Source: an uncultured archaeon (lineage in GTDB: Archaea > Asgardarchaeota > Lokiarchaeia > Sigyniarchaeales > SOKP01). From it: a stretch of DNA of 64,000 bases. The stretch covers positions 15,489 to 79,488 of the forward strand of contig CAZZIC010000001.1 of the NCBI GenBank assembly GCA_964653985.1. The letters are read 5' to 3'. Both the position numbers and the translations under genes were made by a program. The notes under the pieces were generated by a model that saw only the letters and a program-made list of their open reading frames with translations, did no database searches and had not been told where the DNA came from. Positions 8,126-27,573 of the stretch are shown here, piece by piece; the first letter of the stretch is position 1, and the number at the start of each line of letters is the position of its first letter.

Positions 8126-8998
8126 ATGTCGGAGGAAAAACAAGATCCCCCAAAAATTTTATTACCTAAACAGGGAGAAATAAGGGCACTGGAGGAACCT
8201 GAAAAATCTTTCTCGATTCAGGAAATATTTGAAAACATTACACCACATACACCTAAAATCAAACTAGTGAGTAATTTAGGCTCAAAAAAAATTTCCACAT
8301 TATTTAACATCTCAGCTTTGACAAAAAAAAAGAAATATGGCAGTAAAGAATCAATTAAACTGGGAGAAAATGACGAAGAATTAATTGATGCCACTTTATC
8401 ATTAACAGAAAATATAATCTTCTATCCTAAAATTGAATTCAGAGGAGAAGGGAAGTTAACAAAAGCTCAGAAGCAAAAAGGAATTGAGAAAAAAATTATT
8501 ATCAAATCAGTACATGGGGGGATTAGGAAATCGGTACCGGTCGATGGTGAAGGAAATTATGTTAAAAAGAAAAATATTGAATATTATAAAAGAGAAGATG
8601 AAGAGAGTAAACTTCCGGTTTACCCTTCAAACTTATATAGTGATAAAAATCCGAGGAAAATAACTATAAATGAAGTAGCGGAAATTGAGAGAATTTTAGA
8701 CACTAATATTCAATCTAGGTACATCTTGTTTCCTGTTGAAAGTCAGGATGATTCCGAATTTAAAAATCTGGTAAATAATATGGAAGCGGTAGGACCGCAT
8801 TTCTTAACATTCAAATTCAATTATCGAAAAGGGACAAACCAAAAGGATGCATTTCTTGTCTTAATTGAGGAAGACGGTAATGAATATATCTTGATGTGCG
8901 TTGGGTTACAAATGGATATTAAATGGGTTGGTTTGGAAGAGTTGCCCGAAGAGAATCTTTTTTTCTTCGAGAAGTTGGACCTAGATTTAAAAATCTAG
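8126..8998 (+). CDS. hypothetical protein (candidate Ku-like beta-barrel core, unverified)
   Basis: This 290-aa ORF is the first gene of the plus arm that ends in the DNA ligase. The segment KITINEVAEIERILDTNIQSRYILFPVES..EFKNLVNNMEAVGPHFLTFKFNYRKG...AFLVLIEEDGNEYILMCVGL loosely follows the bacterial Ku core pattern by eye only. The protein has an acidic-aromatic C-terminus. Confidence 0.55.
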   Translation: MSEEKQDPPKILLPKQGEIRALEEPEKSFSIQEIFENITPHTPKIKLVSNLGSKKISTLFNISALTKKKKYGSKESIKLGENDEELIDATLSLTENIIFYPKIEFRGEGKLTKAQKQKGIEKKIIIKSVHGGIRKSVPVDGEGNYVKKKNIEYYKREDEESKLPVYPSNLYSDKNPRKITINEVAEIERILDTNIQSRYILFPVESQDDSEFKNLVNNMEAVGPHFLTFKFNYRKGTNQKDAFLVLIEEDGNEYILMCVGLQMDIKWVGLEELPEENLFFFEKLDLDLKI

Positions 8999-9054
8999 TT
9001 ATTCTAAAAAGTTACGAGTTTATCTTAATATTGAATTAAAGAGAGTCGAAAAAG

Positions 9055-9804
9055 ATGAGTTTACAATTCGGCAATTATAACTTCGAGATTTTTATAACAG
9101 ACGAAGATCCCAGATTAAATACAAGAGTTAGAGCAATTCCCAGATTTAAACTTATAAAAAAAATAAAAAAAACTCTTGATGGAAAAGAAGTCCATAATAC
9201 AAAGAGAGCTATTGTACCGTATGATAATGAATTTATGGAAAGATTAAGATACGATGAAAATTTACTTCAAGAATTTTTAGAAAATGATAATGAAATTGAT
9301 TTAGAACTAACAGGAAAAAGAATTTCAAGAACATTTCGAATCTTATTAAACCAAGACAACGAATTATGCTATAACTTTACAGAATATCAAATTCAAAAAG
9401 ATCGACAAGGGAGAATTATTCCATGTGTAGAATGTGGGGAACTTTTTTGCAAACACCAAGTAAAGAAAAGAACAAAATCCAATATAAACGAGGATCAAAA
9501 ACCGGTTATATTCATCAAACCGATGATGCTAGATAAATTGGAAGCAATAAAAAGATGGTCATTTGGGCGAAGTTATCAACTCAGGCATGTTGATGGATTA
9601 ACATTTAAATTTTGCTATGAATTATCCCAAAAACTTCATAAATCAGGTAAAATGGTATTAATGGCACCCATAGAAGAGAATACGCCCCAGAAAATCGTTC
9701 TTAGAAACAATACAGCTCCATTTTATGCTTGGTTAGAGGGTCGAATAAATGGGGACAAATATGCTTTGATATTACATCGTGCTACTCTAAAAATTGTGGA
9801 TTGA
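9055..9804 (+). CDS. hypothetical protein (second candidate Ku-like protein, unverified)
   Basis: This 249-aa ORF starts 56 nt after the previous gene. The segment IFIKPMMLDKLEAIKRWSFGRSYQLRHVDGLTFKFCYELSQKLHKSGKMVLMAPIEENTPQKIVLR resembles the Ku stretch (..IDPIYF.+SYYL.P...G.+AY.LL..AL...GK.aia......+..LaaLR) by eye. An internal CxxC...C..H is also present. Confidence 0.55.
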   Translation: MSLQFGNYNFEIFITDEDPRLNTRVRAIPRFKLIKKIKKTLDGKEVHNTKRAIVPYDNEFMERLRYDENLLQEFLENDNEIDLELTGKRISRTFRILLNQDNELCYNFTEYQIQKDRQGRIIPCVECGELFCKHQVKKRTKSNINEDQKPVIFIKPMMLDKLEAIKRWSFGRSYQLRHVDGLTFKFCYELSQKLHKSGKMVLMAPIEENTPQKIVLRNNTAPFYAWLEGRINGDKYALILHRATLKIVD

Positions 9805-9855
9805 AATAGATTATAATCTTTAATGGAAAATTAAGCAAAAAAGATTAAAGAAAAA

Positions 9856-11784
9856 ATGAAAAAAATCATAACTTTAGCAGAAAGAAAATTTGGAAAGGAA
9901 TTTGGAAACTACTGGCTGGGTCCTACATTCAGTGCTAATAAAAGAATTCAACAAATTACGGATGATTACAAGCTTGCTTTCCTTAAAAAATTCTATTCTC
10001 TTCCTCCCTCTTTTATAAACCCTATTAACAAAGATAAAACGTATCGAAAACTACCCGATGATCTTATAGTATCAGTTAAACGAGATGGAAGTTATTTCAC
10101 CTATGTTTATGATATACATTCCGAACCAGTTTCAGTTTTTTGTAACTCGCCAAATGCCAGGATTTTATATAATCTCCCCGTGAATCGAGAACTGGAGCAA
10201 AGAATTCCAAAAATAAACGAAAATAAATTAGGTTCGTTGAAGGAGCTTTTAAATGAGATCATCGGTGAAAACATATTCAAGAACTTTAAGACTATTCACA
10301 AAATTGTTTTAGCAGGAGAGCTTTTTTCTAATGTTGAAAAAGAGAACGATAGACCACGAGTTTATGATTTAGTTAAGGTAATGTTTAATCCTGAAAGTTT
10401 AAAAGAATTAGAAGCGATTCATTTTGACATTTTTGATATTATTTCTATTAATGGTAATAGTCTGATAACACTTCCCTACAAAAAACGCCTCGATATTTGT
10501 AAACTTTTGTTTTCCATCAATGATGAAAATAAAGCTAATATAATTGAACATAAAACTAAGGTTAAATCTAAAGACACTTACAAATTATATGAGCGATGGG
10601 TTCAGAAAAAGCATCACGAAGGAATAGTGATTCATACTAAATATAATATGTCCTATAAAATAAAGCCAATATTCAATATTGATGCGGTGATTATTGGGTT
10701 TGTTGAATTACTGAAAGAAAGTCTTCTTGAAGGTGATGAGGGTGCTATTAGTTCGTTATTGTTAGCATTAATGCATGAAGATGGAAGTTTTCAAGAGTTA
10801 TGCCGTATGGGAGGAGGTCTTTCTTATGAACAAAGAGTTGAGTTATTTAACCTTCTAAAGCAAGATGTTGTAAAATCTAGTTTTAGAGCCTCAAAACAAG
10901 ATGGAAGGGCATTTAGATTTGTAATTCCGAAATATATTGTCCAAGTTGATTATATGGACTACATTATAGAAGATAGTAAGGGTAAATCCATTCAGAGAAT
11001 GAATTTGAAATTTGAGGATAACAAATGGATTCCCATAAAAAGCATACCTTTTGTTTCTCTTATATCTCCCCGCTATGGTGTAATGCGAAGTGAGATAGAT
11101 AAAGAAAAATATCCTTCTCTTGCATATGTAAATCCAAAAGAGGTTAGATATGAGGATGTTAAATGTAAGCAGATACTCGATTTAGTTCCGATTGACCTTA
11201 TTGGATCCCAAGAGGTTTTAGAAAATCTACCTAAATCTAAAATATTATTTAAAGTTGTATTTGAAGGTGAATGGACAGGTTATAAATCGGGAAGAAAAAT
11301 AATTCTCTGGCAAACAAATAAAAAGGATTTAAATCCTTCTTTTCCAAATTATATTGTTTACTATGGAAATTATAGTTATACTCGACGGAGTCCTTTAGAA
11401 CAAAGAATTTATCCATTCAACAGTTTAGATAAGGCAATTGATCATATAAACTGGGTTTTTAAAAGACCTGATAGTAATCAAAAAGGTTTAATCAACAAAA
11501 GTGGTAATGGTTTAAAGAGATCAATAAATACACCTCCATTTGAGCTATTAATCGATAAAGGACATAAAGAAAAAATTATTAGTGGATTAGATTTTCTTAT
11601 AAAAAAAATTTTATTCAATGAAGAGTTTAAAGTAGATTTGGATTTGGATGATTTGGATTTTGATTTTGAAGAATTAGAAATGGAGGAACAAGAGAATCAA
11701 GAAATAGATAATGAAGTAGAAAAAGATTTATTAGATAAAATGTTAGAAACTGATCTAGATGATATTGACTTCGAAGATCTTTAA
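9856..11784 (+). CDS. ATP-dependent DNA ligase (minimal nucleotidyltransferase + OB core) with ~220-aa C-terminal extension and acidic tail
   Basis: Motif I is SVKRDGSY (KxDG at nt 10078-10089), motif III VLAGELFS, motif IIIa FDIFDIISING followed by LPYKKRLDICKLLF, motif IV HHEGIVIHT and motif V SYKIKP...DAVIIGF. The OB domain starts at SSLLLALMHEDGSFQELCRMGGGLS, and a motif VI-like LISPRYGVMRSEIDKEK follows. Confidence 0.75.
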   Translation: MKKIITLAERKFGKEFGNYWLGPTFSANKRIQQITDDYKLAFLKKFYSLPPSFINPINKDKTYRKLPDDLIVSVKRDGSYFTYVYDIHSEPVSVFCNSPNARILYNLPVNRELEQRIPKINENKLGSLKELLNEIIGENIFKNFKTIHKIVLAGELFSNVEKENDRPRVYDLVKVMFNPESLKELEAIHFDIFDIISINGNSLITLPYKKRLDICKLLFSINDENKANIIEHKTKVKSKDTYKLYERWVQKKHHEGIVIHTKYNMSYKIKPIFNIDAVIIGFVELLKESLLEGDEGAISSLLLALMHEDGSFQELCRMGGGLSYEQRVELFNLLKQDVVKSSFRASKQDGRAFRFVIPKYIVQVDYMDYIIEDSKGKSIQRMNLKFEDNKWIPIKSIPFVSLISPRYGVMRSEIDKEKYPSLAYVNPKEVRYEDVKCKQILDLVPIDLIGSQEVLENLPKSKILFKVVFEGEWTGYKSGRKIILWQTNKKDLNPSFPNYIVYYGNYSYTRRSPLEQRIYPFNSLDKAIDHINWVFKRPDSNQKGLINKSGNGLKRSINTPPFELLIDKGHKEKIISGLDFLIKKILFNEEFKVDLDLDDLDFDFEELEMEEQENQEIDNEVEKDLLDKMLETDLDDIDFEDL

Positions 11785-14337
11785 TTAACTGATTCTTTCA
11801 AGGACTTCCATCAATAAAGAGGGAATTTCCATAATCTTCGTGATATATACAATCTCCCCTTTTGTTTTTTCTAAAATCCATTGGGCATATCTTTTCGAAT
11901 AAGATCTTGTATTAACACCTAATAGAAATTGAACACGTTGGTTAATATATTCTTCTAACTGACTTTTTATTTGACTTTCACTCTCGCTGAAGGCACAATC
12001 TGTTAAAAGAAAGCAGAGTTTCCTTTCTGTACGGGTTTTTTGAAGTTCTTTTGCTCCCCATTCTAAAGCTGCTTTAACTTGAGTCCCTCCCCGAGCCCTC
12101 AAATCAAGTAACTCATCTGCCACATCCTCAAGATCTCGTTGATCTCCGAATTCTTTGACTATGTGAGTATTAGACTCAAAAAAACAGATTGCTACTTCAT
12201 CAGCTTTTAAGGTACCTATTAAAACCATAACTGCTATGGAACATGCGGCAAGTTTCATCCCACTCATTGAACCCGAGATATCAAGTAAAAAACAAATTGA
12301 AACCCTTCCTTTTTCAGTTCTTTGTACTAATAAATCCTCAGATGTAATCATTTCAATTGATTTTCCTTGCATTAAAATATTCTCAATGGTGGCATCAATA
12401 TTTATTAAGTCCATATCATCTCCAAGAATAAATGGTCTCAATTGAGTAGTTGGAATTAAACCCTTTTCTCCACTACCTCTTTGATTAGAAATAATATTCA
12501 TAGCAATTTTGATTAGAGCATCCCTACATAAACCTTTAACAAAACCTTTTAGATGGCTGGGGACTTGGGTTCGGTGATAAAACCACTGGATGAGTAAATT
12601 TTCTCCTGGTCCTGCATTTAAGGATTCCGCTACCCTTTTCTGAGCCCTTTTCCCTTGCTTTCCAGCAGCCTGGAAGGTTTTTCCCATATCATGATGAGAA
12701 AGTGCTCCAAGTCCAGGATAATTATTTTTTTCAAGAGCAATATCTATTAATTCATTTATTTGAGGTCCAGTTAATTTAATCTTTTTCATAATTTTCGCAT
12801 ATCTTTCAAAATTACCAATGTTTTGCTGGTACATTGATTTTAAAAGTTTATAATTACCACCAAATATTTCAATGATAATATCCTCTTTGACACCAAGTTT
12901 TTTACCAATTTTTATAACTTCTCCTTGGTTTAGGGGGACCAAATTAGAAACTAAAGATCTGAGGGAATTTTTAAACTGATCCTTATCATGTGCTGATTCT
13001 AAACCTTTTATCCCCGATTTCAAGGCGTTTCCAACAAAGGTTCCTTGGCAAGATTCGAATTCACTTTGATCTGATAAATTCATTAATTCATTCGCTAAGT
13101 CTGTGAGATTATAACTTGCTTGTCCGTTATTATTAAGATAATCCATTATTTTTCTTTCAATAAGTTCATTAAGCATTTTTCGCCATTGTGGATGTTCCGC
13201 CTGGGCTTGAAAAAGCTCCGATAAAGAAGGAGATGGATTTTGTCTTGTCCATTCTTCAAATAGTTTATTCGTTAAATTGGAGTTAAACTTTTTATCCAAG
13301 GCTCTGGAAATGTCAAATGAAGAATCAGCATCTTTCTGAACGCTATTTGAAAATACTTTATTTTGATCAAATTGAGGGATATGATTTAAAACGTTAGAAA
13401 CCTCATTTAAATCAATAATGTTATCAATTCTATCAATTAAACCGTTCGCAAGAGTGTTGATTTGAGATTTTTCCATACCTACTTGATCGAGATAATTTAA
13501 TGAGCGTGCTGAGGCTCCAACCTCTTCTGAATTCATTACATTATTAAGAGAATTCTTGAAATCCATATCACCCATCAAATATTGAGCTGTAAGATTAATC
13601 CATGGCGTTTTTGCTTGATCTAATATATCTTCCCCCCAATTTAAGTTTGTTGCTGATTGAATATCTGAAGGAGATAAATTATTTATCTCCCGTAGGATTG
13701 TTTGATGACAGTCTTTTTTTAGATCGTTGATATCTTTTATCCCTTGTTCTAAAACATATTTATAATTATCTCTTTGCTCTATAATATCAACTAAACTTCG
13801 AAATGGTTCTTTATCTTGATTTGCTTGGTCATATAGATTATTAACAAAATCCATTAAACCGGAAAATTCTTCCATAGCTTTATCAATTAATTCTTCCGTA
13901 TCCAAATTACTGATATCTAGTTTAGAATCCATTAAATCTAAAAACTCTTCCATAAAATCAGTTTTTTTATCGCTTGTTGCTTCAATATCTTCTTTTTTTT
14001 GTCTCTTTCCAGCTTTATTTTTATCTTTCTTTTCAAAAATAATGTTGAATGCAATTTCTTGGGCAATTGATTGATCCTCTATAGGTGTAGTCAGTACAGC
14101 AGCATTAATAAAGTCGTCAGGAATGAGATTATGCTTACGGTAGTACATTGCAGTTATTAATTTAGGTATCGCTATTGCTTGGCGAGTACTAGGGATGTTT
14201 TTAAGTCTGCCTTTATTCCTTCGCATTTGATAAATAAATTCAATCGTAAATGAGATAGGATTCCACTCTAAGATTTTGTTATTTGCAAAATCTCCGATAT
14301 TACCTTTATCTATTCTTCTCATCCTGTTTTTACTCAT
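11785..14337 (-). CDS. large vWA-domain protein (CbbO/NorD/ViaA-like partner of the adjacent MoxR ATPase)
   Basis: The C-terminal vWA domain has a MIDAS motif DISGS (nt 12268-12282) inside VSICFLLDISGSMSG, followed by GGTQVKAAL and LLTDCAF. The ~650-aa helical N-region is of unknown family. The gene starts 23 nt after the MoxR gene. Confidence 0.75.
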   Translation of the reverse strand: MSKNRMRRIDKGNIGDFANNKILEWNPISFTIEFIYQMRRNKGRLKNIPSTRQAIAIPKLITAMYYRKHNLIPDDFINAAVLTTPIEDQSIAQEIAFNIIFEKKDKNKAGKRQKKEDIEATSDKKTDFMEEFLDLMDSKLDISNLDTEELIDKAMEEFSGLMDFVNNLYDQANQDKEPFRSLVDIIEQRDNYKYVLEQGIKDINDLKKDCHQTILREINNLSPSDIQSATNLNWGEDILDQAKTPWINLTAQYLMGDMDFKNSLNNVMNSEEVGASARSLNYLDQVGMEKSQINTLANGLIDRIDNIIDLNEVSNVLNHIPQFDQNKVFSNSVQKDADSSFDISRALDKKFNSNLTNKLFEEWTRQNPSPSLSELFQAQAEHPQWRKMLNELIERKIMDYLNNNGQASYNLTDLANELMNLSDQSEFESCQGTFVGNALKSGIKGLESAHDKDQFKNSLRSLVSNLVPLNQGEVIKIGKKLGVKEDIIIEIFGGNYKLLKSMYQQNIGNFERYAKIMKKIKLTGPQINELIDIALEKNNYPGLGALSHHDMGKTFQAAGKQGKRAQKRVAESLNAGPGENLLIQWFYHRTQVPSHLKGFVKGLCRDALIKIAMNIISNQRGSGEKGLIPTTQLRPFILGDDMDLINIDATIENILMQGKSIEMITSEDLLVQRTEKGRVSICFLLDISGSMSGMKLAACSIAVMVLIGTLKADEVAICFFESNTHIVKEFGDQRDLEDVADELLDLRARGGTQVKAALEWGAKELQKTRTERKLCFLLTDCAFSESESQIKSQLEEYINQRVQFLLGVNTRSYSKRYAQWILEKTKGEIVYITKIMEIPSLLMEVLERIS

Positions 14338-14360
14338 TCATCAATATTTAAGTATTCTAT

Positions 14361-15272
14361 TTAAGAAACTCCAACAACCTTTGTCAAAATGTGCTTAATA
14401 AACTTCTTAACATCTTTTCCGGGTCTAAGTTCTATTGAATCTTGCAAAATTAGTTTTGCAGATTCAGCGATTAATTTATTATCCACACTAGTATTGAGTC
14501 GATTTGCTCTTTCTGAAACAAATCTAGCAAGTCCTATACTTGTCCTCAAACTGGGTGGCCGTTCAACTTCAGGAGCGTCCCGGCATTGGATCATTAATTC
14601 GATGATCTTTTCTTGCGTTAATGCTGAAAGATTATATTCTGGACAATTTGAAACCATTATCTTCTGTTCTAATGACTTCGGGGGATAACTTAGATGGATC
14701 CAAACTTTTATTCTATCTTTTATAGCAGAGGGTAATCGTCTGGTTCCTTTCAATTCGGTAGGATTCATCGCCGCAATTACATAAAATTCATCTTTTGTCT
14801 TCAACCATGTCTTCAATTGAGGAATATACAAGCGACGCTCCTCCATAGCATCTAACATACTATTTAGAACATACTCATCTCCTCTATTCAATTCATTTGC
14901 TAAGAAGATACCTCCTTTGAGAGCAGCCAAAGAAAAAGGACCCGGGATATATGAGTCTGGTGAAAATCCGTATTTAAAGACCAATGTAGGATCGAATGAA
15001 CCGATCAGTGTGGAAGGCCGTATTAAATCAGAAAAAGTAACCCAATGAAACTCCCTTTCAAGATCGTATGCAAATTTACGACACAATGCTGTTTTACCAC
15101 ATCCCACGGGTCCAACTAAGCCAACAAATAAACCCGCATTATAAGCATCTAGCATTGCTTCATAAGCGTACTTATATTGACCTTCTAGAACTAAATTAAT
15201 ATCCTCGCGGATATCTTCTATTTTACTTTCTTGAATCAATTTTGAAAATTCTTTAACTTGTTGCTTGGACAT
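14361..15272 (-). CDS. MoxR/CbbQ/NorQ-family AAA+ ATPase
   Basis: Walker A is GPVGCGKT. The Walker B region IFLANELNRGDEYVLNSMLDAMEERR has Asn where MoxR proteins have Asp. Sensor 1 and the Arg finger read VIAAMNPTELKGTRRLPSAIKDRI. The 303-aa length is typical of this family. Confidence 0.8.
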   Translation of the reverse strand: MSKQQVKEFSKLIQESKIEDIREDINLVLEGQYKYAYEAMLDAYNAGLFVGLVGPVGCGKTALCRKFAYDLEREFHWVTFSDLIRPSTLIGSFDPTLVFKYGFSPDSYIPGPFSLAALKGGIFLANELNRGDEYVLNSMLDAMEERRLYIPQLKTWLKTKDEFYVIAAMNPTELKGTRRLPSAIKDRIKVWIHLSYPPKSLEQKIMVSNCPEYNLSALTQEKIIELMIQCRDAPEVERPPSLRTSIGLARFVSERANRLNTSVDNKLIAESAKLILQDSIELRPGKDVKKFIKHILTKVVGVS

Positions 15273-15323
15273 TTATTATACACTTTTTTAAATTATTTTT
15301 ATTAGGAATTTATTTATAAGGTT

Positions 15324-15851
15324 TCAATTTTCGAAAAATAATTCCGTTTCTGTAGGTTGAACAACTATTGGAACCTCATAATTTAATTTTTCAATCGCTT
15401 TTACAACTCTGTTGTATTCTTCTTCTTCTAAAACTGTTCTTCGGCCGAATTTTAACCTCTTCATAATGTAATCTCCAAAATATGTTTCCTTAAGATCTTT
15501 CACATAATACTTTTTGCCTTTCTTCTTTACTTGTGAATTTTTTAATTCTTTAATTCTCTTTAATAGAATTATTTTAGCGAGAGGTTTCCAAGATTTCTCT
15601 TGTTTTAAAGCTTCTAAATCAAAATCTCTATGATTTAATTTATCATCTTTTACCATTAAACTAATATTCTTTAAAAACGCAGTAAAATATTTTCTTTTAA
15701 AATTTTCAATGGAACTGGTATCTGTTATTTGATTTGTAAGCTTTGAAAATAGATCCTCAATGATTTTTTCATTCGTGTTTTCATAATATTTTTGAATCTG
15801 TTTTTTTAAGTTAACAGTAAATATATCACACTCATTGTTCTTATTTTCCAA
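15324..15851 (-). CDS. hypothetical protein (175 aa)
   Basis: The TTG start lies 6 nt after an AGGTGA (complement of 15858-15863). It sits 18 nt downstream of the Rad50-like gene and 51 nt upstream of the MoxR gene. I recognise no motif. The C-terminus is ...TETELFFEN. Confidence 0.5.
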   Translation of the reverse strand: MENKNNECDIFTVNLKKQIQKYYENTNEKIIEDLFSKLTNQITDTSSIENFKRKYFTAFLKNISLMVKDDKLNHRDFDLEALKQEKSWKPLAKIILLKRIKELKNSQVKKKGKKYYVKDLKETYFGDYIMKRLKFGRRTVLEEEEYNRVVKAIEKLNYEVPIVVQPTETELFFEN

Positions 15852-15869
15852 TCCTATTCACCTTTTTTT

Positions 15870-18720: not shown

Positions 18721-21432
18721 TCATACATTAGTAAGATAACTTACCTGTGTGGATTCGTTATTATCTTTTGAAAGTTTAATAACATACTCGCTGTGACGCT
18801 TAAAGGAATCATCATGGGAAATGACAAAAAGTTGGTTGAATCCCTCTATATTATTTATATATTTGCTAAGATTATTTCTTGATGTCTCATCTAGGTTTGT
18901 TGTCGGTTCATCAAAAATTGCAAACTTTGCCGAAGTGAGTGTCTTTAAAATGGCTAATCTTACTGCTAATGCAGCTGCCATTTTTTCTCCTCCTGATAAT
19001 CTGATAAACTTCTTTTTGCTTTTTGCTTTTAAAATCTCAATTTCATAGTTTTGATCCCACTGTAATGAGGTATTTTGATCTCCTCTAATGTTACGATATA
19101 TTTTTGAAGCTTGTCTATTTACTTTCTGAATTAATTGTTGTCTCATTTTTGGTTTAAAATCTTTTAACCAATTCCGTATTTTACTTACAAATTTTTTTTC
19201 GGCTTCTAATTTTAGCTCAATTTCTTTAAATTCATCTAGTTTTTTCTCTTTTGATTCTAAATTCTCGAGTTCTTCATTAATTTCGTCTAATCTCTGCTGC
19301 AAATTACGCAAATTTTCTTCTAACTTAATTATATTCCGGTTTTTTTCATCGAATTCTTCTTGTAATTTTTTATGGGTGACTTCATTATATTTAGCAGATA
19401 ATTCTTTTAACTCCTCTAAGCTCTCAGAATACTGTTTTACCAAATTCTCTAATCTTTGCTTGGCTCTATTAACTTTTTCTTTTCTTTGTTTTAATTTTTC
19501 TGCTTCGTTTATATTTTTCTGATATTGGTTATATGCTTTTTCTAAATTATTTAATTTCTTTCTTATCGCCGATAATTTATCTGGAATATTTCCTAACTTA
19601 GCTATTTTGCTTTTTAGATTTTCCTTCTTAGATTCTACTTCTTCTACTTCTACCTTTAGTTCTTCTAACTGATTTTCTATATCCTTGAGATCTTCTACTT
19701 TTCTTTTATGAATAAGATAATCATCATGAAAAGGTTGTAATGCTTCTCGCTTTTCCATAAGCTTTTTTTTAGAGTTAATCAATTGAGATTTTTCTGTAAT
19801 TTTACTATTAATTTCATTTATTTCTTCTTTCATAGACTTATATTGTTTTTCAAACTCTTCTAATTTTATAGCATTCCGTTTTAGATGTTCTATTTCATCC
19901 TGAAAGTCCTCCTTTTTTTTTAATTTCTCACTGATTTCATTCAAATCCCTTCTCTTAGATTTTAACTCTTCATTCTTTAAGATAATATCTTGATTAAAAT
20001 AATCTATATCAAACTCGCCATCTAGCATATTTTTACATTGTTGATCCGTAAATGGACATAGTTTTTGTTCTACTTTATTTTGATGATTTTGAAAGAATGA
20101 TATATCATTTTTTATACTTGAAATTTCTAATGCTAATGTGTTTTTCTTTTGTTCAAGTGTTTTGATATTTTCCAGCTTCTCTTTTAATTTTGGTAAGTTT
20201 TCTACTTCTTTTTTTATAGTATTTATATTTTTTTTAAGGGATGATACTCGTTCTTTTTTTTTATTAAGTCTCGACTCTGCGGCTTTAATAACTGCGATTT
20301 GTTCATCCAATTTTTTGATCTTAGATTCTAATTTTAAAAATCCTTCATATTTTGGTTCAATTTCTTTTATAATTTTTGAGGAATTCTTTGCTTCATTTAA
20401 CTTTTCCTTCTTATTGGAATATTTATTTTTTATATTCTGATATTTTTGATTCATCTCATTAAGTTTTTCCTTTAATCTACTTAGTTCTTCGCTTTCTTTA
20501 ATTAATTCCTCTTTCATTTCAGAATTCTTGAGGTATTGTTGGTAGTCATCTTTTGTATCGTTCACAACTTCTTTAGCGTGGCTAGACTCTTTTAATTGCT
20601 GCTGAAACATCACTAGATTTTGTTCTTCATTCTTCTTTTTTACTTCTAATTGCCTATACGTAGATGTTATCTCATCTAACTTTCCTTTTGTTGATTTGAA
20701 GTCATCCAATTCATTTTTGATTTTCTGCTTTTCCCTTCTGAATTCGTTTAATTTTTTTGATTTATTATCAATCTCTTTGGAAACTTCCTTTTTGTACCTT
20801 ACCTTAGATTCTTTTTCTTTAGTTTCCCCAGTTAATTCACTGATTTGATTTTGGATAGTTACTAATTCATCTCTAAAACTCCTTTCAATTACACCTAAAT
20901 TATCCCAATATTCTTCATATGTGTCTAGCTGAAAGATCTCATCAAAATATTCCTTCCTCTCCTTAGGACTCCTTAAAAAGATGTTAATTATCATTCCTTG
21001 AGGAATCCCAATAGCAGTATTAAACAAGGTCTGGAGATCTATATTATTTTTTACTCCAAGTTGATGTTTTATCCAAGATCTAAATTTTGAAATAGTCTCA
21101 ATCTGGGGAGAAACTTCCTTTCCTTTCTCATCTTTTACCTCAATATCAGTTTTTCCGATTTTTCGCTTAATTGTGTAGATTTTATTATTTAATCCATTTA
21201 TCCATATTTTAATAGATCCATATTCGGGCTTATCATTTTCAACTGATCGAACATAATCTGAATGTTGAGTTTTTGATTTTAAGAAATCGAACAAAACATA
21301 CCCGATCATTTCCAAAACGGTTGATTTACCAGTTCCGTTGTTGCCATAAAGGACATTTAGCCCTTCATTAAACGTTATTGTAGTATCTTTATGTGTTTTA
21401 ACATTTTCGATTTGAATTTTTCTAATTAGCAT
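18721..21432 (-). CDS. Rad50/SbcC-family ATPase, paralogue 1 (canonical signature, atypical hook)
   Basis: Walker A is GNNGTGKST and the Q-loop is GIPQG. A ~600-aa coiled coil carries the central CPFTDQQC (nt 20035-20058). The signature is LSGGEK, Walker B is FAIFDEPTTNLD and the H-loop is VISHD. The longest ORF reaches 21477 through an ATG run that is the out-of-frame reading of the Mre11 Asp-codon run. The ATG at 21432 lies 8 nt after GAGGTGA and gives MLIRKIQIENVKTH. Confidence 0.85.
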   Translation of the reverse strand: MLIRKIQIENVKTHKDTTITFNEGLNVLYGNNGTGKSTVLEMIGYVLFDFLKSKTQHSDYVRSVENDKPEYGSIKIWINGLNNKIYTIKRKIGKTDIEVKDEKGKEVSPQIETISKFRSWIKHQLGVKNNIDLQTLFNTAIGIPQGMIINIFLRSPKERKEYFDEIFQLDTYEEYWDNLGVIERSFRDELVTIQNQISELTGETKEKESKVRYKKEVSKEIDNKSKKLNEFRREKQKIKNELDDFKSTKGKLDEITSTYRQLEVKKKNEEQNLVMFQQQLKESSHAKEVVNDTKDDYQQYLKNSEMKEELIKESEELSRLKEKLNEMNQKYQNIKNKYSNKKEKLNEAKNSSKIIKEIEPKYEGFLKLESKIKKLDEQIAVIKAAESRLNKKKERVSSLKKNINTIKKEVENLPKLKEKLENIKTLEQKKNTLALEISSIKNDISFFQNHQNKVEQKLCPFTDQQCKNMLDGEFDIDYFNQDIILKNEELKSKRRDLNEISEKLKKKEDFQDEIEHLKRNAIKLEEFEKQYKSMKEEINEINSKITEKSQLINSKKKLMEKREALQPFHDDYLIHKRKVEDLKDIENQLEELKVEVEEVESKKENLKSKIAKLGNIPDKLSAIRKKLNNLEKAYNQYQKNINEAEKLKQRKEKVNRAKQRLENLVKQYSESLEELKELSAKYNEVTHKKLQEEFDEKNRNIIKLEENLRNLQQRLDEINEELENLESKEKKLDEFKEIELKLEAEKKFVSKIRNWLKDFKPKMRQQLIQKVNRQASKIYRNIRGDQNTSLQWDQNYEIEILKAKSKKKFIRLSGGEKMAAALAVRLAILKTLTSAKFAIFDEPTTNLDETSRNNLSKYINNIEGFNQLFVISHDDSFKRHSEYVIKLSKDNNESTQVSYLTNV

Positions 21433-21440
21433 TTTATTTT

Positions 21441-21447
21441 TCACCTC
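21441..21447 (-). promoter_or_regulatory. Shine-Dalgarno-like site (GAGGTGA) that contains the Mre11 stop codon, 8 nt upstream of the Rad50 ATG
   Basis: The minus strand reads GAGGTGAaaaataaaATG. The TGA (21446-21448) is the Mre11 stop. Confidence 0.6.
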
Positions 21448-23041
21448 AGATATTTGTATCTTCATCATCATCATCAATTATACTATCAATATCAAAATCT
21501 TCACCTTCTGCATCTAAAAGTTCTTTAAATTCGCCGAATTCTTGTGAGAAATCCTCTTCTTTCCAAGCTTCTTCTATAGAGATTTGTTTCGTTTGTTTTT
21601 TCTTCTTTTTCTTTTTCTTCGTTTTTTTAACTTTTGGTTTTTTCGAAGCTTTTTGATGTTTAACTATTTTGAGCATTTCATTTAAAATATCTTGGTTTAA
21701 ATTAAACCAATCCTCTAATTCAGTTTTAATTACATTATAATCAGCATTTTTGGTTAGTTTTCCCTTTAATTCATTTAAGATTAAATTAGTGATTTCTTTT
21801 TTGTAAGGTTTAAACTTTGCCTCGTTATCGATTGTAGATAAAAGAGCTTCTTTCTCGATTTTTTCAAAATTCCAATCATCCTCAATATCAAGCGAGTAAT
21901 TTTTTTCGGAATAAATTTGATTATTAAGTCGAAGACCTAGGATTTCAAAATTGTCGAAAATCCTATTTTTCAGTTCAGTCAAATCAATTTCCAATTCCGA
22001 ATACTCAATCCAACCTTTGATAAATATATATAAAACAGGAATATCCAAATTAGATAGATTAGTCTCATCTCCCGTTTTTTCGGGGACTCCTAATTTTCTT
22101 AGTCTAGAAATTACCATCTCTTGAGCTTCTTCGAAGGATTGTGATTCTGTGATATTAATAGAGGAGTAGGTTAGAAATCTTCTATTTGGAATAGAAAAAC
22201 GATTATCTGTACTTCCATTTTCACAAAGTATTGGTTGAGCAGTAAAGTTAAAGTTATCCTCTGGAAAAATGTTTACCAAATAAATACCTCGGTCATCCCC
22301 CAATTCAGTAATTTCATTAACTTCTAGGCTGCCAGGATTAAATATCCACGGATTATTCTCTGGTTTTTCATATTGTATATGAAAATGTCCTAGGGCTAGG
22401 TAATCTACTTTATCATGGAGTTCTTGTAGACTCTTTGTTAAAGGATATCCTTTTTTTCTTTTATCTTCCCCTTGGATTCCGAAGTGCATCATTAGAATGA
22501 CAAATTTTTCCTCCTCGTCAATTTCCTTCTCTATTAAAGGATATAAGTTAGGTGTCGAACTTCCAAAATAACTAATCCCATAAATTGTTGTATTACCGAT
22601 CTGTATTTTTCCCCCTCTATGCTCTCTATATGAATAGTCTTCAAAAATAATTCTATTCGCTGCTTTATCATATTTTCCTGAAAGTAAAATAATTAGCTCT
22701 AAATCTGCAAGTAATTTTAGCCATGTACGATCTGAAAAAAATGGGGTTTCATGATTTCCTTCAATACAAATTATCGGAATTTTTCTTTTTAAGCTTTCTT
22801 CACATTTTGATTGAAAATCTTTAATAGTTGTTATAATATTTCCTAACGTCGACGGATTCACTTTTCTCTCACTATCTATTAAATCCCCGCTAATTAAGAC
22901 GAAATTCACCTCTTCGTAAATTGCCTTGTTAAGCAACCATTCAAAAGCTTTAAAAAAATCATTATATCGTTGTTTTATTCCATATAAGGTTTTTCCTAAG
23001 TGAAGATCAGCAGCATGTATAAATTTAATATTTCCACTCAT
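21446..23041 (-). CDS. Mre11/SbcD-family calcineurin-like phosphoesterase (nuclease) with K-rich then acidic C-terminal tail
   Basis: The five phosphoesterase motifs are I IHAADLHLG, II LISGDLID, III IEGNHE, IV LMMHFG and V LALGHFH. The tail reads KKPKVKKTKKKKKKKKQTK ... DAEGEDFDIDSIIDDDDEDTNI. Confidence 0.85.
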   Translation of the reverse strand: MSGNIKFIHAADLHLGKTLYGIKQRYNDFFKAFEWLLNKAIYEEVNFVLISGDLIDSERKVNPSTLGNIITTIKDFQSKCEESLKRKIPIICIEGNHETPFFSDRTWLKLLADLELIILLSGKYDKAANRIIFEDYSYREHRGGKIQIGNTTIYGISYFGSSTPNLYPLIEKEIDEEEKFVILMMHFGIQGEDKRKKGYPLTKSLQELHDKVDYLALGHFHIQYEKPENNPWIFNPGSLEVNEITELGDDRGIYLVNIFPEDNFNFTAQPILCENGSTDNRFSIPNRRFLTYSSINITESQSFEEAQEMVISRLRKLGVPEKTGDETNLSNLDIPVLYIFIKGWIEYSELEIDLTELKNRIFDNFEILGLRLNNQIYSEKNYSLDIEDDWNFEKIEKEALLSTIDNEAKFKPYKKEITNLILNELKGKLTKNADYNVIKTELEDWFNLNQDILNEMLKIVKHQKASKKPKVKKTKKKKKKKKQTKQISIEEAWKEEDFSQEFGEFKELLDAEGEDFDIDSIIDDDDEDTNI

Positions 23042-23097
23042 TTTTACGTTTAAACACTCTTATTATTATTATTATAATTTTTAATTGGATTTGTCAA

Positions 23098-26000
23098 CTA
23101 TTTTTTGTATCTTAATTTCACTTTTTGTAATAAATTTGTAGATTTATTTTTAATCTGAAGTGGGATCTCCCTATTACAATATTCTTTAACATACATATAG
23201 ATTTTTGATGAATATTTAAGGATTTCCCTCTCATCGGGTATATAATTTATGAATTTATTACTAGAAATAAAAATAAGCTTACTTTTGGCTCTAGAGGTTA
23301 ATACATTAAACCTGTTTAAATTATAAATAAATTCATCCTCCATTTGGAGTTTATCCTCATCAGATAACCCAATCGAGCAGATAATTAAATCCCTATCAGA
23401 GCCTTGAAACTTTTCAACCGAATATACAGTTTCCTTTAAAGCTTGCATTAATTTAGATTTTGATAATTTAGTAAAGGGCTCAAATAATTGAAAAATGTTT
23501 CGAATTATAGTCCTTCCTTGTGCATTATGTGGAGCTACCACACCAATCTGTTGCTGCCAAAAGGTATTCTCTTCTTGTACAGTTAATGGGCTAATCATTT
23601 CATAGAATCCCTTGACAATCTCTGCTACAATTTGAGCCTCAAAAAGACTGATTCCAATCTCAAATTTTTCAGAATGAATGATGGAGCATGCTACTCTACT
23701 AGGTTTCAAAACTTCCTTTATCCAAGATTGTTTAATATCATCTACGCTCCCTTTAAGAACTCTATTCGCATTTTCTTTATACGCCTTTAAATTATCATAA
23801 AGTCCCAATTTGGATGTAAATTCAACTATATCTTTATGGGAACGATAATTAACTTTTAACTGCTTACGCGATATCTCATGCCCCTCGACATAGTATCTAA
23901 AAATATTATCTAAAATAATTTCAAGATTTTTAGGTGGTTTTTTAACCCTTACAGGGGGAAGTTGATTATGATCTCCAACGACCACGACTTTAGTCAGGGA
24001 ATCGTCAATAATTTTGTTATCAACAAGGGTTATTTCTTTAATTGAATCCTTATTAGTAATCCGCTTTCTCGGATTCAAATTTTCAAGTTTTTCGATATTT
24101 ATTTTGGGTTTTTTAATGAATTGAAGACTAGCCATAAAATAATCTGCGGGAAGTTGACTTGCCTCATCAACACAAATTAGATCAAATGTAAAATCTTCGG
24201 AAACACGTTTAGGTAAATGATATAATTGATGAGCATTAGCAAAAATTATAAAATCATTTTTCAAGGATTCTTCTAATGGTTTAGTTTTCGTAATCGTATA
24301 AGATTCACCATTTAGCTTCCATGTGTCTCCGTCTCTTAATATATTATCCACATCTCTTAGGGTAGGATCCCTCCCTATCGGTTCCTTAGAGATAGAATGA
24401 ATAAAAACCATTTGGAGTCTAGAAGAAGGAGTAGGCTTATTCAATATGTTTTTACTCCTTCGAACCTTGTCGATTACCACTCGTAAAGCAGCGTAAGAAA
24501 ATGACGTAATTAGAATTCTTACATTTTTATTCTGTTTTTTTCGCCTTATAACAAATTCGTCTATCAAAGAAGCAATGGTCTGAGATTTACCGGTACCAGG
24601 AGGTCCTAGAATCGCTGAAATTATATTTTCAAGGGAATTTAGTATTGCTTCTTTTTGAGAGGTGTCTGGAATAGGTTTTATTTTCGAAATTAATTTTTCA
24701 TTGTTTATAGTTTTATTGACTTTCTTTAAAACAGAAGGAGCATATAGATATATTGAAGGCGTTGTAAAATTCCACTTTTCTGGCCATTTTAATTTAGGTT
24801 TACTCCTTAAATCCCATAAAAATGCCAACCGAGCTCCTAGCCATGATCTCCCGAAATGCTCTCTTTGAAGCAAGCCTCTACTCTTATTGTTATATAATTT
24901 ACTTGACCAAGCATCAGAGCTAATAGGATAAATATACCATTTTTGGGTATCTGGATTAAGACCTTCGCCTTTACATATTTCAATTACATTTGTAGTAGTG
25001 GGTTTTGTAGAGATTTTATTTCCTTTAATTGATTGTTCCCATTTTATCCTCTCAATATAGACAATCCACTTGTAAATTCTTTTATCAAGTTTTATTCCTC
25101 GTTTAGAATTGGGAATCAGTAAAACTCGATCACCCTCTTTTAATTTCATGTTACTTGAAAGTCCAATAAGATTAAAGGTATATTTTAAAGATTTTCCTTG
25201 TAATTTATGAATCTTCAAATCTCTTACTCGCGCTGAAATTAACTTTCCAATGCTAAAATCAGGAAACATGGTTCTGAAATATTCATCATCTTGCTGTTGA
25301 AGAGCACTATTTAATTTTGAAAACAAATACCATACATGAGCAATGTCATGATAATCAGAAGGTAAAATTGCACTTTTATAATCATGACGGCTGATAGTTC
25401 TTGCATTTTGGGATAAAGCAATATTTCCTTGTTTTTGAAAGCGAATACGCAAGCTGTCTATAACGTGTAATTTTAGGATTATTTGATTTTTGATAACATC
25501 TCTTTTCTTCTTTTTTTTGTTAGAATCTTCTTCTCTTAGATACAACAACCAAGAAGCTAAATCTAAATAGTTAAAATGAGGTACCCAATACATTCTTGTT
25601 TTGATCTCTAACTTATCAAAAAGCTTATTGGCGATACTATGCCAAGTATAGTTAATTACATCTGGAAAACCAATACAAGATTCCGCAAAACTCTGGATAT
25701 CAAACAGCTTTTTGTATTGATAAGGATTACTCACTTCTGTATCGGATGGCGTAAAATACATTAGAATTGCCTCATAAGCAGCTCTTGCTTCTATGTTATC
25801 GATTACTAAATCTAAATTTCTCTGAATCATATCTTGAAGATGATCTAATTGATTTCGAGACCAATAAAAAATACTTGTATCTGGTCCTATCTGGTACCTT
25901 CCGTATTTTCCATCGATATCAATAATTATATGATCTTCAATTATACTGCACATTTGAAGTATTAGATTCAACTTTTTAATCATCTTGATAGTGAGTTCTG

Positions 26001-27573
26001 CTTCACTCTTTTTCGTGATATCCTTGTTAACACTGGAAAATCTATACATTACACTCGTTCCAGCAGAAGTTTTTTCTCCTCTTAATGTAATTTCGATTGT
26101 CTTTAATTTTTTCAAGCAATCAAGAAAATAATCAACATTTTCAATTGCAATTCCTTTTACTAAATAATCATTGAGCTTTTCTTGAATTTTTTTTGTAGAT
26201 TTATCTTCTTTTAACGCGTTCTTCCAAATCCTCCACCAATTGTCAAAAATACCATGATATTTTAACTTTGAAGGAATGAACATTTTTAAAAGAATTCCAA
26301 CCGCAAAAATCCGATCTGTGTTACGATCATATTCAACATCAAAATAAATTGCTAAGGGTGAATATCTGGGAATCGAATACGAATAGGTTTGTTTATTTTT
26401 TGGGAATATCAGTCTATTATTTTTTAATGCTCTTGTCTTAAGTTTTAAGGTTGGTAATTCAGAATAAAGAGGTTTAGGTATGTTCCCTACCTTAATTCTA
26501 TCGAAATTATTTGATAGTTCGCCAATAGTCTGTATGTTAAATTCATTTTTCAACTGTTGAGCGATGGATTTCGAGGTGAATGGAAGAAGTTCGATAGCCC
26601 AATCCTCTGGATTATCCCTATCCTTCATTCCTAAAGTATTTTTACAATCCTCAATAAACTGACAATAACCACATCCATCATGGATATTTGTTTTTACTTG
26701 AGAAATTGGACATGGAGCTTTTCTCCATAATTTTTCAACAACTTTAACCACTCTGTTGTAAATTCGATTTGATTCTTTCCAACTTATTGGAGTAATCAAC
26801 TCCTTGGCAAAGATATCTGCTATAAATGTAAGATCTTTAAATTCCTCTTCATCGTGCAATGGAAAGATTCCGTTATAATTTGCTCTAACGTAAAAAAGAT
26901 TATCCAAACCAATCTCTTTAAGATATAAAGCTAAGGTCTTTAAATAGTAAAAAATCTCAAAAAAATGTTTTTTACCAATATTCTCCTCATTAGTGTACTT
27001 TATATCAAAAATGGAAATGCCCAACCGGTCATTTTCCTTTTCTTTCGGTATTTTTTTTATACTTCCATCAGATAAGATTTCATATACAGAATCCAAATAA
27101 TGGTTTATCTTGTTTCCAATAAAAATTAAATCAGGTCTTTGGGAGGAATAATCTACTGGAATATTTTTTATTTTAGCTTTAGGATCAAAAAGTTTATAGA
27201 AAAAAATTTTAGGAATTTCAAATTCATATTCTAATAATAAAATGAGTGAGTTTGGAAATTTTCCTTTGAGTCTTTTATTTATATCAGTTAATATTTTGGG
27301 AGTAAGATAAGAATCTTGGATTATTCCATTGTGTTCATTATAGATGCTATTCTTAAGATTTTTAATATAAGAATAAATTAACTTTTCATATTCTTTTCCT
27401 TTCTCTTTGAGAAATTTTGTCTGAAAGATGAGTCTTTCAGGAGGAGTAGATGGTATTGGTCTCACGGGATTAAACCACAAATTTGGCTTATCTCGCCCTA
27501 ATTCCAAAAACAATCTCCTTTTACAATTAGTGAGAATATAGCTCTGAAGTAATGTCTTATTAAATTTAGCCAT
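23098..27573 (-). CDS. Cas4/Dna2-type Fe-S PD-(D/E)xK nuclease + RNase H-like domain + SF1B (Upf1/Dna2-like) helicase fusion, 1491 aa
   Basis: The N-terminal nuclease has C17, then RPDLIF, SIFDIKYT and FYYLKTLALY, then C301-x2-C304-x5-C310 (CGYCQFIEDC, nt 26644-26673), which is the Cas4/AddB/Dna2 iron-staple pattern. The middle region contains AIYFDVEYD...IFYWSRNQLDHL...LFDIQ, which looks DnaQ/RNase H-like. The helicase motifs are I GPPGTGKSQT (nt 24583-24606), II LICVDEASQL, III VVVVGDHNQLPPV, IV YRSHKDIVEF, V VEKFQGSDRDLIICS and VI FNVLTSRAKSKLIFI. Confidence 0.85.
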   Translation of the reverse strand: MAKFNKTLLQSYILTNCKRRLFLELGRDKPNLWFNPVRPIPSTPPERLIFQTKFLKEKGKEYEKLIYSYIKNLKNSIYNEHNGIIQDSYLTPKILTDINKRLKGKFPNSLILLLEYEFEIPKIFFYKLFDPKAKIKNIPVDYSSQRPDLIFIGNKINHYLDSVYEILSDGSIKKIPKEKENDRLGISIFDIKYTNEENIGKKHFFEIFYYLKTLALYLKEIGLDNLFYVRANYNGIFPLHDEEEFKDLTFIADIFAKELITPISWKESNRIYNRVVKVVEKLWRKAPCPISQVKTNIHDGCGYCQFIEDCKNTLGMKDRDNPEDWAIELLPFTSKSIAQQLKNEFNIQTIGELSNNFDRIKVGNIPKPLYSELPTLKLKTRALKNNRLIFPKNKQTYSYSIPRYSPLAIYFDVEYDRNTDRIFAVGILLKMFIPSKLKYHGIFDNWWRIWKNALKEDKSTKKIQEKLNDYLVKGIAIENVDYFLDCLKKLKTIEITLRGEKTSAGTSVMYRFSSVNKDITKKSEAELTIKMIKKLNLILQMCSIIEDHIIIDIDGKYGRYQIGPDTSIFYWSRNQLDHLQDMIQRNLDLVIDNIEARAAYEAILMYFTPSDTEVSNPYQYKKLFDIQSFAESCIGFPDVINYTWHSIANKLFDKLEIKTRMYWVPHFNYLDLASWLLYLREEDSNKKKKKRDVIKNQIILKLHVIDSLRIRFQKQGNIALSQNARTISRHDYKSAILPSDYHDIAHVWYLFSKLNSALQQQDDEYFRTMFPDFSIGKLISARVRDLKIHKLQGKSLKYTFNLIGLSSNMKLKEGDRVLLIPNSKRGIKLDKRIYKWIVYIERIKWEQSIKGNKISTKPTTTNVIEICKGEGLNPDTQKWYIYPISSDAWSSKLYNNKSRGLLQREHFGRSWLGARLAFLWDLRSKPKLKWPEKWNFTTPSIYLYAPSVLKKVNKTINNEKLISKIKPIPDTSQKEAILNSLENIISAILGPPGTGKSQTIASLIDEFVIRRKKQNKNVRILITSFSYAALRVVIDKVRRSKNILNKPTPSSRLQMVFIHSISKEPIGRDPTLRDVDNILRDGDTWKLNGESYTITKTKPLEESLKNDFIIFANAHQLYHLPKRVSEDFTFDLICVDEASQLPADYFMASLQFIKKPKINIEKLENLNPRKRITNKDSIKEITLVDNKIIDDSLTKVVVVGDHNQLPPVRVKKPPKNLEIILDNIFRYYVEGHEISRKQLKVNYRSHKDIVEFTSKLGLYDNLKAYKENANRVLKGSVDDIKQSWIKEVLKPSRVACSIIHSEKFEIGISLFEAQIVAEIVKGFYEMISPLTVQEENTFWQQQIGVVAPHNAQGRTIIRNIFQLFEPFTKLSKSKLMQALKETVYSVEKFQGSDRDLIICSIGLSDEDKLQMEDEFIYNLNRFNVLTSRAKSKLIFISSNKFINYIPDEREILKYSSKIYMYVKEYCNREIPLQIKNKSTNLLQKVKLRYKK

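Follow-up and report, generated by a model that had tools for sequence, protein, structure and literature searches.

A cluster of eleven genes in the genome of an uncultured microbial-mat archaeon of the Lokiarchaeia (Promethearchaeota) probably includes a locus dedicated to processing and joining DNA ends at double-strand breaks (DSBs). The cluster lies in a 64,000-nucleotide (nt) stretch of DNA (hereafter the window; NCBI GenBank assembly GCA_964653985.1, contig CAZZIC010000001.1, positions 15,489 to 79,488 of the forward strand) and its genes were assigned to three modules. Module A comprises a nuclease-helicase, Mre11, and Rad50; module L comprises u290 (product termed uA), u249, and an ATP-dependent DNA ligase; and module B comprises an 84-amino-acid (aa) protein (u84), a Rad50 paralog, a 175-aa protein (u175), a MoxR-class ATPase, and a vWA protein. 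The break-repair assignment applies to modules A and L. An earlier reading made without database searches (the sequence-only reading) had described a convergent cluster of eight genes on the minus strand and three on the plus strand, and the coordinates of all eleven open reading frames (ORFs) were reproduced exactly. Its attribution of the whole cluster to DNA-end chemistry also held, as every gene either belonged to DNA-end metabolism or was consistently linked to it.

The assignment of modules A and L to one locus rests on their gene neighborhoods. With the central gene as anchor, all window proteins were mapped onto 17 related Lokiarchaeial loci. Linkage of A and L was seen at seven loci of the Lokiarchaeia, with at least three arrangements represented, namely a six-gene operon, a divergent, and a convergent layout. 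The loci L047, L057, and L081 contained six co-directional genes coding for the nuclease-helicase, Mre11, Rad50, uA, a u249 homolog, and the ligase, while in L049 and L134 the two triads diverged from a common intergenic region; none of these loci included module B. A further locus (L023) carried on one strand Rad50 followed by u290-like and u249-like genes and then the ligase, and in the window the minus arm containing module A converges with module L. The plus-arm genes recurred beside Mre11-Rad50 in six Lokiarchaeial loci other than the window, and the eight minus-arm genes were colinear in the relatives L008, L011, and L022, in which the nuclease-helicase was 70-73% identical to that of the window compared to 51-57% for the Rad50 paralog. 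This neighborhood check upheld the proposal that the genes are not together by accident, since seven A+L loci in at least three arrangements are not explained by chance adjacency. As A and L would be either co-transcribed or under a shared divergent promoter region, they most likely act in one pathway in the Lokiarchaeia. The single fixed architecture of eight plus three genes was not sustained: instead, three separable modules were found apart and in several relative orientations, and the exact layout was shared only with L002-L004, from the species or genus of the window itself.

The second gene of module L, u249 (positions 9055..9804, plus strand), codes for a Ku-like protein that was recognized by its predicted structure and matched no sequence profile. 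An AlphaFold2 (AF2) model built from a 68-sequence alignment had a mean predicted local distance difference test (pLDDT) score of 83.6, and a Foldseek search of the PDB returned Ku proteins as all 50 top matches (best E 2.8e-5, probability 1.00) with the alignment covering approximately 245 of 249 columns. The matches included human and yeast Ku80 and Ku70 plus Mycobacterium tuberculosis Ku, the best by coverage being Ku80 and Ku70, and the sole significant match in the viral structure library BFVD was the Ku of mycobacteriophage Dylan. As modeled, u249 has a Ku fold. In addition, the window and L049 proteins contained a CxxC...CxH insert in the low-confidence central segment, at the predicted position of the Ku bridge, and some family members (P0304, P0311, P0251, and P0253) had Lys/Ala/Pro-rich, histone H1-like tails after the Ku-like domain, with P0253 also carrying a C-terminal SAM domain. 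Such tails are a feature of bacterial Ku proteins. The bridge insert, the H1-like tails, and the constant adjacency of a ligase are consistent with the Ku identity of u249. A viral origin of the family was considered and rejected, as no relatives were present among the IMG/VR viral contigs.

The u249 gene is flanked by the two other genes of module L. Upstream lies uA (8126..8998, plus strand), for which no family match was obtained, and downstream an ATP-dependent DNA ligase of 642 aa (9856..11784, plus strand) that matched Pfam DNA_ligase_A_M and DNA_ligase_A_C with weak scores of 38 and 34 bits. The ligase consists of an adenylation plus OB core, a C-terminal domain specific to its family, and an acidic tail, and is without an N-terminal DNA-binding domain. 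Its motifs I, III, IV, and V (K75-x-D77-G78, FD, EGxV, and KxK) were at least 90% conserved among 45 family members and its closest solved relatives were the DNA ligases 9dfa and 4eq5. In a survey of the window and the uA genes in L047-L131, the uA C-terminus was nearly always an acidic run ending in DF[SG]M[FM] or DFDIW (e.g., ...DELDFSMF). Similar DF elements were present in the tails of Lokiarchaeial Mre11 proteins (DFDID, EFDLFD, and NDFEVF) and of the window ligase (DLDDIDFEDL). Judged by these motifs, the acidic DF-tipped tails may be a shared docking motif and uA may dock as an adaptor through its tail. A Tubby-like identity of uA was rejected, as three Tubby matches with E approximately 0.1 obtained with a 4-sequence profile were gone with a 29-sequence profile.

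The same three genes were found together far beyond the Lokiarchaeia. In a metagenome scan for u249 relatives the pattern matched more than 600 times and 562 relatives were confirmed, and every ORF was scored with hidden Markov models in the best 80 loci. Among these best 80, the uA-Ku-like-ligase trio was complete in each of the 41 loci that had room on both sides and uA was upstream of the Ku-like gene in 60 of the 62 loci with upstream room. By an exhaustive profile search, the Ku-like family numbered 524 clusters at 50% identity. The trio occurred in archaea and bacteria, and was standalone in bacteria such as the Anaerolineales (L050) as well as in L051. A conserved fourth partner was sought and rejected, as no neighbor family occurred in more than 7 of 66 loci. 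One rumen lineage (L084, L085, L087, and L093; e.g., L087:1650-7225) had an operon of ligase, uA, Ku-like, AAA_5 ATPase, and DUF2201 genes, the DUF2201 protein combining a vWA-like with a putative metallopeptidase domain; this ATPase and DUF2201 pair is unrelated to the MoxR and vWA proteins of module B. The four rumen loci were 92-100% identical and thus represent one event in a single independent lineage. Taken with the modeled Ku fold, this distribution suggests that uA, the Ku-like protein, and the ligase would form a widespread three-gene end-joining unit. The sequence-only reading had listed both genes upstream of the ligase as lacking recognizable relatives; the absence of a family match stood, while the Ku fold of u249 and the membership of both genes in a three-gene unit with the ligase had been missed. 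Separately, divergent DUF2779 proteins adjoined standalone trios at L117:10766-13108, L082:2502-4445, L102:4526-6091, and L105:8885-10456. We take DUF2779 to be a member of the PD-(D/E)xK nuclease clan, and kinship of these proteins with the Lokiarchaeial nuclease-helicase was rejected, as hhalign gave no significant profile link.

The largest gene of module A codes for a nuclease-helicase of 1491 aa (23098..27573, minus strand). Its C-terminal third (residues 950-1460) is an Upf1/IGHMBP2-class SF1B helicase by matches to Pfam AAA_11 and AAA_12, which spanned residues 970-1439, and to the NCBIfam IGHMBP2-family helicase model. In an alignment of 52 homologs (39-74% identical), the N-terminal residues C17, R146-P-D148, D190-x-K192, E206-x-x-Y-Y, and C301-x2-C304-x5-C310 were invariant or at least 90% conserved, a set which we take to be the PD-(D/E)xK core plus the four-cysteine set of Cas4, AddB, and Dna2. 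A middle region of approximately 450 aa was also conserved and included an invariant VExD motif. The AF2 model (pLDDT 78.7) had Dna2 (5eaw) as its best Foldseek match that was not significant (E 0.05, probability 0.18), and the protein matched neither the Dna2 family models of Pfam and NCBIfam nor any Cas4 or PDDEXK model of Pfam. As the best fold match was not significant, a Dna2-like architecture was accepted and membership of the Dna2 family was not. The suggestion that a Dna2-like enzyme occupies the place of HerA and NurA therefore stood for the SF1B motor, the nuclease motifs, and the position, but not for the family. Apart from one metagenome-assembled genome labeled Hermodarchaeota, the family was restricted to the Lokiarchaeia. 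A 50%-identical paralog occurred at L048:8746-19309, and the proteins encoded after it (915, 732, 195, and 131 aa) matched nothing in Pfam; that locus had no Mre11, Rad50, Ku, or ligase, and the genes on its flanks were NOV_C, HFX_2341_N, and CoiA_nuc. It is possible that the enzyme has a second, different partnership.

The adjacent module A genes code for Mre11 and Rad50. Mre11 (531 aa; 21446..23041, minus strand) matched Metallophos with 61 bits and the NCBIfam Mre11_Pyroc/Sulfo/Halo models, the phosphoesterase motifs DxH, GD, GNHE, H, and GHxH were readable in the translation, and its acidic C-terminal tail contains the DFDID element. Rad50 (918 aa from a TTG start; 18721..21477, minus strand) had a full-length match to PRK03918 at 247 bits, and its Walker A/B, LSGGE, and H-loop motifs were present; this score, as well as the other NCBIfam scores for Mre11 and Rad50, was below the curated cut-offs. 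The Rad50 hook has an atypical C-P-x5-C in place of the canonical CxxC, shared by eight of nine homologs (the window, L008, L011, L022, L023, L047, L057, and L081), the exception being the L049 protein with no cysteine pair in the hook region. Downstream of Rad50 in that locus and in the same direction (L049:18596-24129) were genes for an LRR protein (893 aa), a PNK3P-type polynucleotide 3'-phosphatase, and a NERD-helicase, and the phosphatase fits a role in end healing. In the same species from another sample (L001:4388-7131), Rad50 was called as two genes of 524 and 370 aa, a split that reflects either a frameshift, a variant of the assembly, or a pseudogene. Across the cluster, profile searches supported the motif-based domain calls for the helicase, Mre11, Rad50, second Rad50-like ATPase, MoxR, vWA, and ligase, while the nuclease was undetected by profile and fold searches. 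The products of u290, u249, u175, and u84 had no match in Pfam, NCBIfam, or PADLOC.

Genes of the minus arm are closely spaced, as the sequence-only reading had described, with successive spacers of 56, -32, 84, -80, 18, 51, and 23 nt, the -80 nt overlap becoming -41 nt if the database start is used. A TATA-like box (TTTTATATAA; 27601..27610, minus strand) was read directly from the sequence, ending approximately 27 nt upstream of the first ATG of the arm, that of the nuclease-helicase. It was present where proposed and is weak evidence for a promoter because of its AT-rich context in a genome of approximately 30% GC. At the opposite end of the arm, the stop codons of the ligase and vWA genes directly adjoin (TAA|TTA, 11782-11787) with zero intergenic bases. 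This leaves no room for separate terminators, such that the convergent transcripts overlap or terminate inside the opposing gene. The reported absence of HerA and NurA was also borne out, as neither had a match among the Pfam-scanned window ORFs (47 non-overlapping ORFs of at least 90 aa, all but one of 135 aa scanned), nor were they among the genes listed at the related loci.

In the window's clade, module B, an autonomous five-gene unit known here from 15 Lokiarchaeial species and the Myxococcota, is inserted between modules A and L. Its first gene codes for the acidic u84 (18382..18636, minus strand) with the motif LxDDEENLTKT and colinear homologs in 16 Lokiarchaeial loci and bacterial L132 and L133. 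This is followed by the Rad50 paralog (850-863 aa; 15870..18461, minus strand), which matched AAA_23 plus weak Rad50 models and has a C-x-Y-C-G zinc hook, Walker A/B and H-loop motifs, and a variant signature motif EGGGH; its family formed 52 clusters, almost all from the Promethearchaeota. The u175 protein (15324..15851, minus strand) was conserved in 15 loci as well as L132/L133, has a basic and conserved C-terminal half (KKGKKY...PTETEKFF), and had no PDB match. The MoxR-class AAA+ ATPase (303 aa; 14361..15272, minus strand) matched AAA_5 (68 bits) and AAA_3 (55 bits), was 76-90% identical across the Lokiarchaeia, and aligned to the bacterial L132 homolog with 403 bits. Its gene is 23 nt from that of the vWA protein (850 aa; 11785..14337, minus strand), in which a C-terminal VWA_2/VWA domain (residues 672-812) with an intact DxSxS metal ion-dependent adhesion site (MIDAS; DISGS) follows a conserved N-terminal region of approximately 650 aa; the protein was 42-70% identical across loci and the profile of the N-terminal region had no PDB match.

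Module B was colinear in 15 Lokiarchaeial loci with Rad50 paralog identities down to 36%. Module A was directly upstream of it solely in the window's nearer relatives (L008/L019, L011, L022, and L010), and B adjoined A and/or L in three layouts, those of the window's clade, L023, and L009. In bacteria, module B was found in L133 (Myxococcota) and L132, with homologs of all the components covered by the contigs. The L132 contig (L132:1-19571) was a perfect 8.36-kb concatemer (2.3 copies) with a group II intron reverse transcriptase and homologs of all five module B genes, of which the vWA gene was divided into parts of 701 and 145 aa. Either a small circular element or an artifact of long-read assembly could account for this contig. 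In "Candidatus Lokiarchaeum ossiferum" (CP163304; L007:16721-22266), module B was arranged tail to tail with a group of genes comprising one for actin (362 aa) and three that were unannotated (858, 173, and 380 aa).

From the observed folds, motifs, and gene linkage, we infer the following activities and interactions. The Ku-like protein would make up a ring threaded onto DNA ends, uA would be either a second subunit or an adaptor acting via its acidic docking tail, and the dedicated ligase would seal the ends. Ends that are not directly ligatable would be processed by module A, in which Mre11-Rad50 would recognize, tether, and clip blocked ends, and the Dna2-like enzyme, with its 5'-3' SF1B motor and Fe-S PD-(D/E)xK nuclease, would resect them. 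Resection would either expose microhomology for joining or yield 3' tails for recombination. For module B, the repeated proximity to A and L and, by analogy, the rumen operon of AAA_5 and vWA-like genes with the trio suggest an AAA+ remodeler acting on repair complexes. At a guess, an SMC-like tether and this remodeler would assemble or remove topologically trapped repair complexes. In eukaryotes, p97 extracts Ku rings, and the proposed role of module B would parallel this extraction. A more far-reaching version, in which the whole cluster is an integrated, eukaryote-like DSB repair assembly of the Lokiarchaeia, the MoxR/vWA MIDAS captures the DF-tails and loads or extracts Ku and Rad50 rings, and the hidden Ku is the closest prokaryotic relative of Ku70/80, is quite unlikely.

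Several results weigh against an end-processing and end-joining locus. The Ku assignment of u249 rests on a predicted monomer with a template modeling (TM) score of approximately 0.46 and a root-mean-square deviation of approximately 8 Å; the Pfam Ku model missed the window protein and all 68 family members at E values up to 10, and PDB searches with 4- or 68-sequence u249 profiles retrieved no Ku chain. The uA protein had no family match, its 29-sequence profile had no similarity to solved structures, and its identity as a paralogous second Ku subunit found no support at the sequence level, with hhalign probabilities below 1% for shallow and deep profiles. The N-terminal 950 residues of the nuclease-helicase were unrecognized by PDB profiles, permissive Pfam scans, and whole-model Foldseek, and its middle region had no significant fold or profile match in the PDB or Pfam. 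Some related loci had TIR, LRR, NERD, or reverse transcriptase neighbors. Finally, module A was absent within 10 kb of module B in "Ca. Lokiarchaeum ossiferum" and four other species, and because B stands alone in several species and its bacterial version is on a possible mobile element, its repair link may be only positional.

This last point leads to the alternative that survived best, that module B is unrelated to A and L (e.g., a chromosome-organization or cytoskeleton-linked SMC-like system) and occupies its position by neutral insertion, which is a real possibility that remains less probable than its negation. The module stood alone in "Ca. Lokiarchaeum ossiferum", where it was beside an actin gene cluster, and in L012, L013, L014, and L020, was autonomous in bacteria, and was missing from the linked A+L loci L047, L057, L081, L049, and L134. 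On the other hand, it was colinear in the window's clade, convergent on Rad50-Ku-ligase in L023, and near a divergent nuclease-helicase-Mre11 pair in L009, and a zinc-hook Rad50 paralog forms its core. The rumen operon, where a different AAA_5 plus vWA-like pair accompanies the trio, also argues against the alternative, with the weight of one independent lineage only. For module B itself, a defense or chromosome-organization role is possible.

The sequence-only reading had left room for the cluster or a part of it being an NTP-dependent anti-virus or anti-plasmid conflict system, in which foreign DNA would be detected by the SMC-like ATPases and destroyed by the nuclease-helicase, with activation under the control of MoxR-vWA. 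This alternative is unlikely. It draws on partial PADLOC matches to MkoA, DpdJ, and LmuB, the patchy bacterial distribution and variable surroundings of module B and the trio, the perhaps small L132 element with its group II intron, the TIR, LRR, NERD, NOV_C, and CoiA genes near some relatives, and the defense-like context of the L048 paralog. However, the PADLOC matches were generic ABC and SF1 ATPase matches alone (LmuB/JetC-like ABC heads and an MkoA-like helicase core) and no complete system was identified; in that scan, from which the ligase was left out, Mre11, u84, u175, vWA, uA, and the Ku-like protein had no match, MoxR was weak, and the remaining genes of Lamassu, Wadjet, or Mokosh (LmuA and LmuC; JetA/B/D; MkoB) were not found beside the ATPases. 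Published MoxR-vWA conflict systems have variable effectors C-terminal to the vWA domain, a VMAP/iSTAND third component, and rapid diversification, and have no SMC-like partner (Kaur et al., 2020, PMC7159879). Module B had none of these defining features: vWA-fused C-terminal effectors and a VMAP/iSTAND component were lacking, and in place of rapid diversification MoxR was highly conserved across the class (76-90% identical). Moreover, Ku plus ligase is a sealing rather than a destructive chemistry, the window's neighborhood is of housekeeping type, and relatives were absent from IMG/VR. As the PADLOC matches were only generic, module B is without conflict-system traits, and Ku plus ligase indicates sealing, DSB repair was favored for A+L.

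In genomes, obligate pairing with an ATP-dependent ligase gene is what classically marks a prokaryotic Ku, as in bacterial non-homologous end joining (NHEJ) operons. That the structural match to Ku is spurious or due to an analogous beta-barrel, and the trio a system for RNA repair or nucleic-acid modification with a ligase-like nucleotidyltransferase, is very unlikely: the missing sequence-level link to Ku (Pfam on 68 members and PDB profiles), moderate TM-scores, weak ligase Pfam matches, and unexplained uA speak for it, while the uniformly Ku top 50 PDB matches, the phage Ku as the only return from an independent library, the obligate linkage to an ATP-dependent ligase whose closest solved relatives are DNA ligases, the H1-like basic tails of several members, and the operons joining the trio with Mre11-Rad50 speak against it.

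The genes around the cluster gave no sign of a defense island or mobile element among the Pfam-scanned window ORFs and comprised metabolic and housekeeping genes plus Asgard signature genes such as Ras/Arf GTPases and gelsolin. All on the minus strand, these flanking genes included a Ras-family GTPase (6587-7591), a gelsolin-repeat protein (42387-42974), an Arf-like GTPase with an N-terminal extension (44584-46128), and a LuxC/LuxE acyl-CoA reductase and acyl-protein synthetase pair (37874-40891).

Among archaea, end joining with Ku is viewed as sporadic, and it is unclear where eukaryotic Ku70/80 came from. If a Ku family escapes sequence searches, prokaryotic end joining would be more widespread than annotation shows. 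Most of the eukaryotic break-repair activities would be in one operon of the Asgard archaea, the closest archaeal relatives of eukaryotes, and the choice between joining and resection becomes testable with a small and defined gene set. The analysis also exposed two uncharacterized conserved systems, uA and the Rad50-paralog/MoxR/vWA module. In a full-text literature search of incomplete coverage, neither the cluster nor the trio nor an Asgard Ku was described.

The cluster would combine two known kinds of system, one a module for end joining by Ku and ligase and the other an operon for resection with Mre11-Rad50, to which uA and module B are added. Module B resembles the MoxR-vWA systems (the chaperone pairs NorQ/NorD, RavA/ViaA, and CbbQ/CbbO; ternary conflict systems) in having a MoxR AAA_5/AAA_3 ATPase beside a MIDAS vWA protein and further components. 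It differs in that the partners are a zinc-hook Rad50 paralog and two small proteins, the vWA domain is C-terminal with neither effector nor VMAP/iSTAND, no metalloenzyme client is nearby, and the proteins are highly conserved instead of diversifying. By its motifs, the nuclease-helicase would share with the Fe-S nucleases Dna2 and AddB/Cas4 the C...CX2CX5C pattern around a putative PD-(D/E)xK core (D, D-x-K, and ExxY) and with Dna2 the placing of this putative nuclease region N-terminal to an Upf1-class SF1B motor; unlike them, it matches no Pfam Dna2/Cas4/PDDEXK model and its middle region of approximately 450 aa has no identified counterpart. The herA-mre11-rad50-nurA operon of thermophilic archaea likewise has mre11-rad50 adjacent and in one transcript with helicase-nuclease resection activity, whereas the window has a single-chain SF1B helicase plus Cas4-type nuclease motifs in place of HerA (a hexameric FtsK-class ATPase) and NurA, and an attached ligase/Ku module that the canonical operon does not have.

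The trio is closest in organization to prokaryotic NHEJ (LigD in Mycobacterium and Bacillus; Ku/Lig/Pol/PE in Methanocella paludicola). Both place a Ku-fold protein beside a dedicated ATP-dependent ligase in small self-contained operons that are patchy in bacteria and archaea, and some Ku proteins of the window's family have Lys-rich tails. In contrast, the window Ku-like protein is invisible to Pfam Ku and other sequence profiles, the trio adds uA with its acidic tail as a near-invariant third component, its ligase has its own C-terminal domain and no polymerase or phosphoesterase domains, and the Lokiarchaeial trio is joined to Mre11-Rad50 and a nuclease-helicase. Compared to the eukaryotic toolkit, no Nbs1/Xrs2, Sae2/CtIP, XRCC4/XLF, or DNA-PKcs was recognized at the locus, and u249 is without the N-terminal vWA and C-terminal SAP domains of eukaryotic Ku; the Ku-like family also occurs in bacteria. 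The set of activities provided in eukaryotes by MRN/MRX, Dna2, Ku70/80, and Lig4 is nonetheless the set predicted at a single Lokiarchaeial locus.

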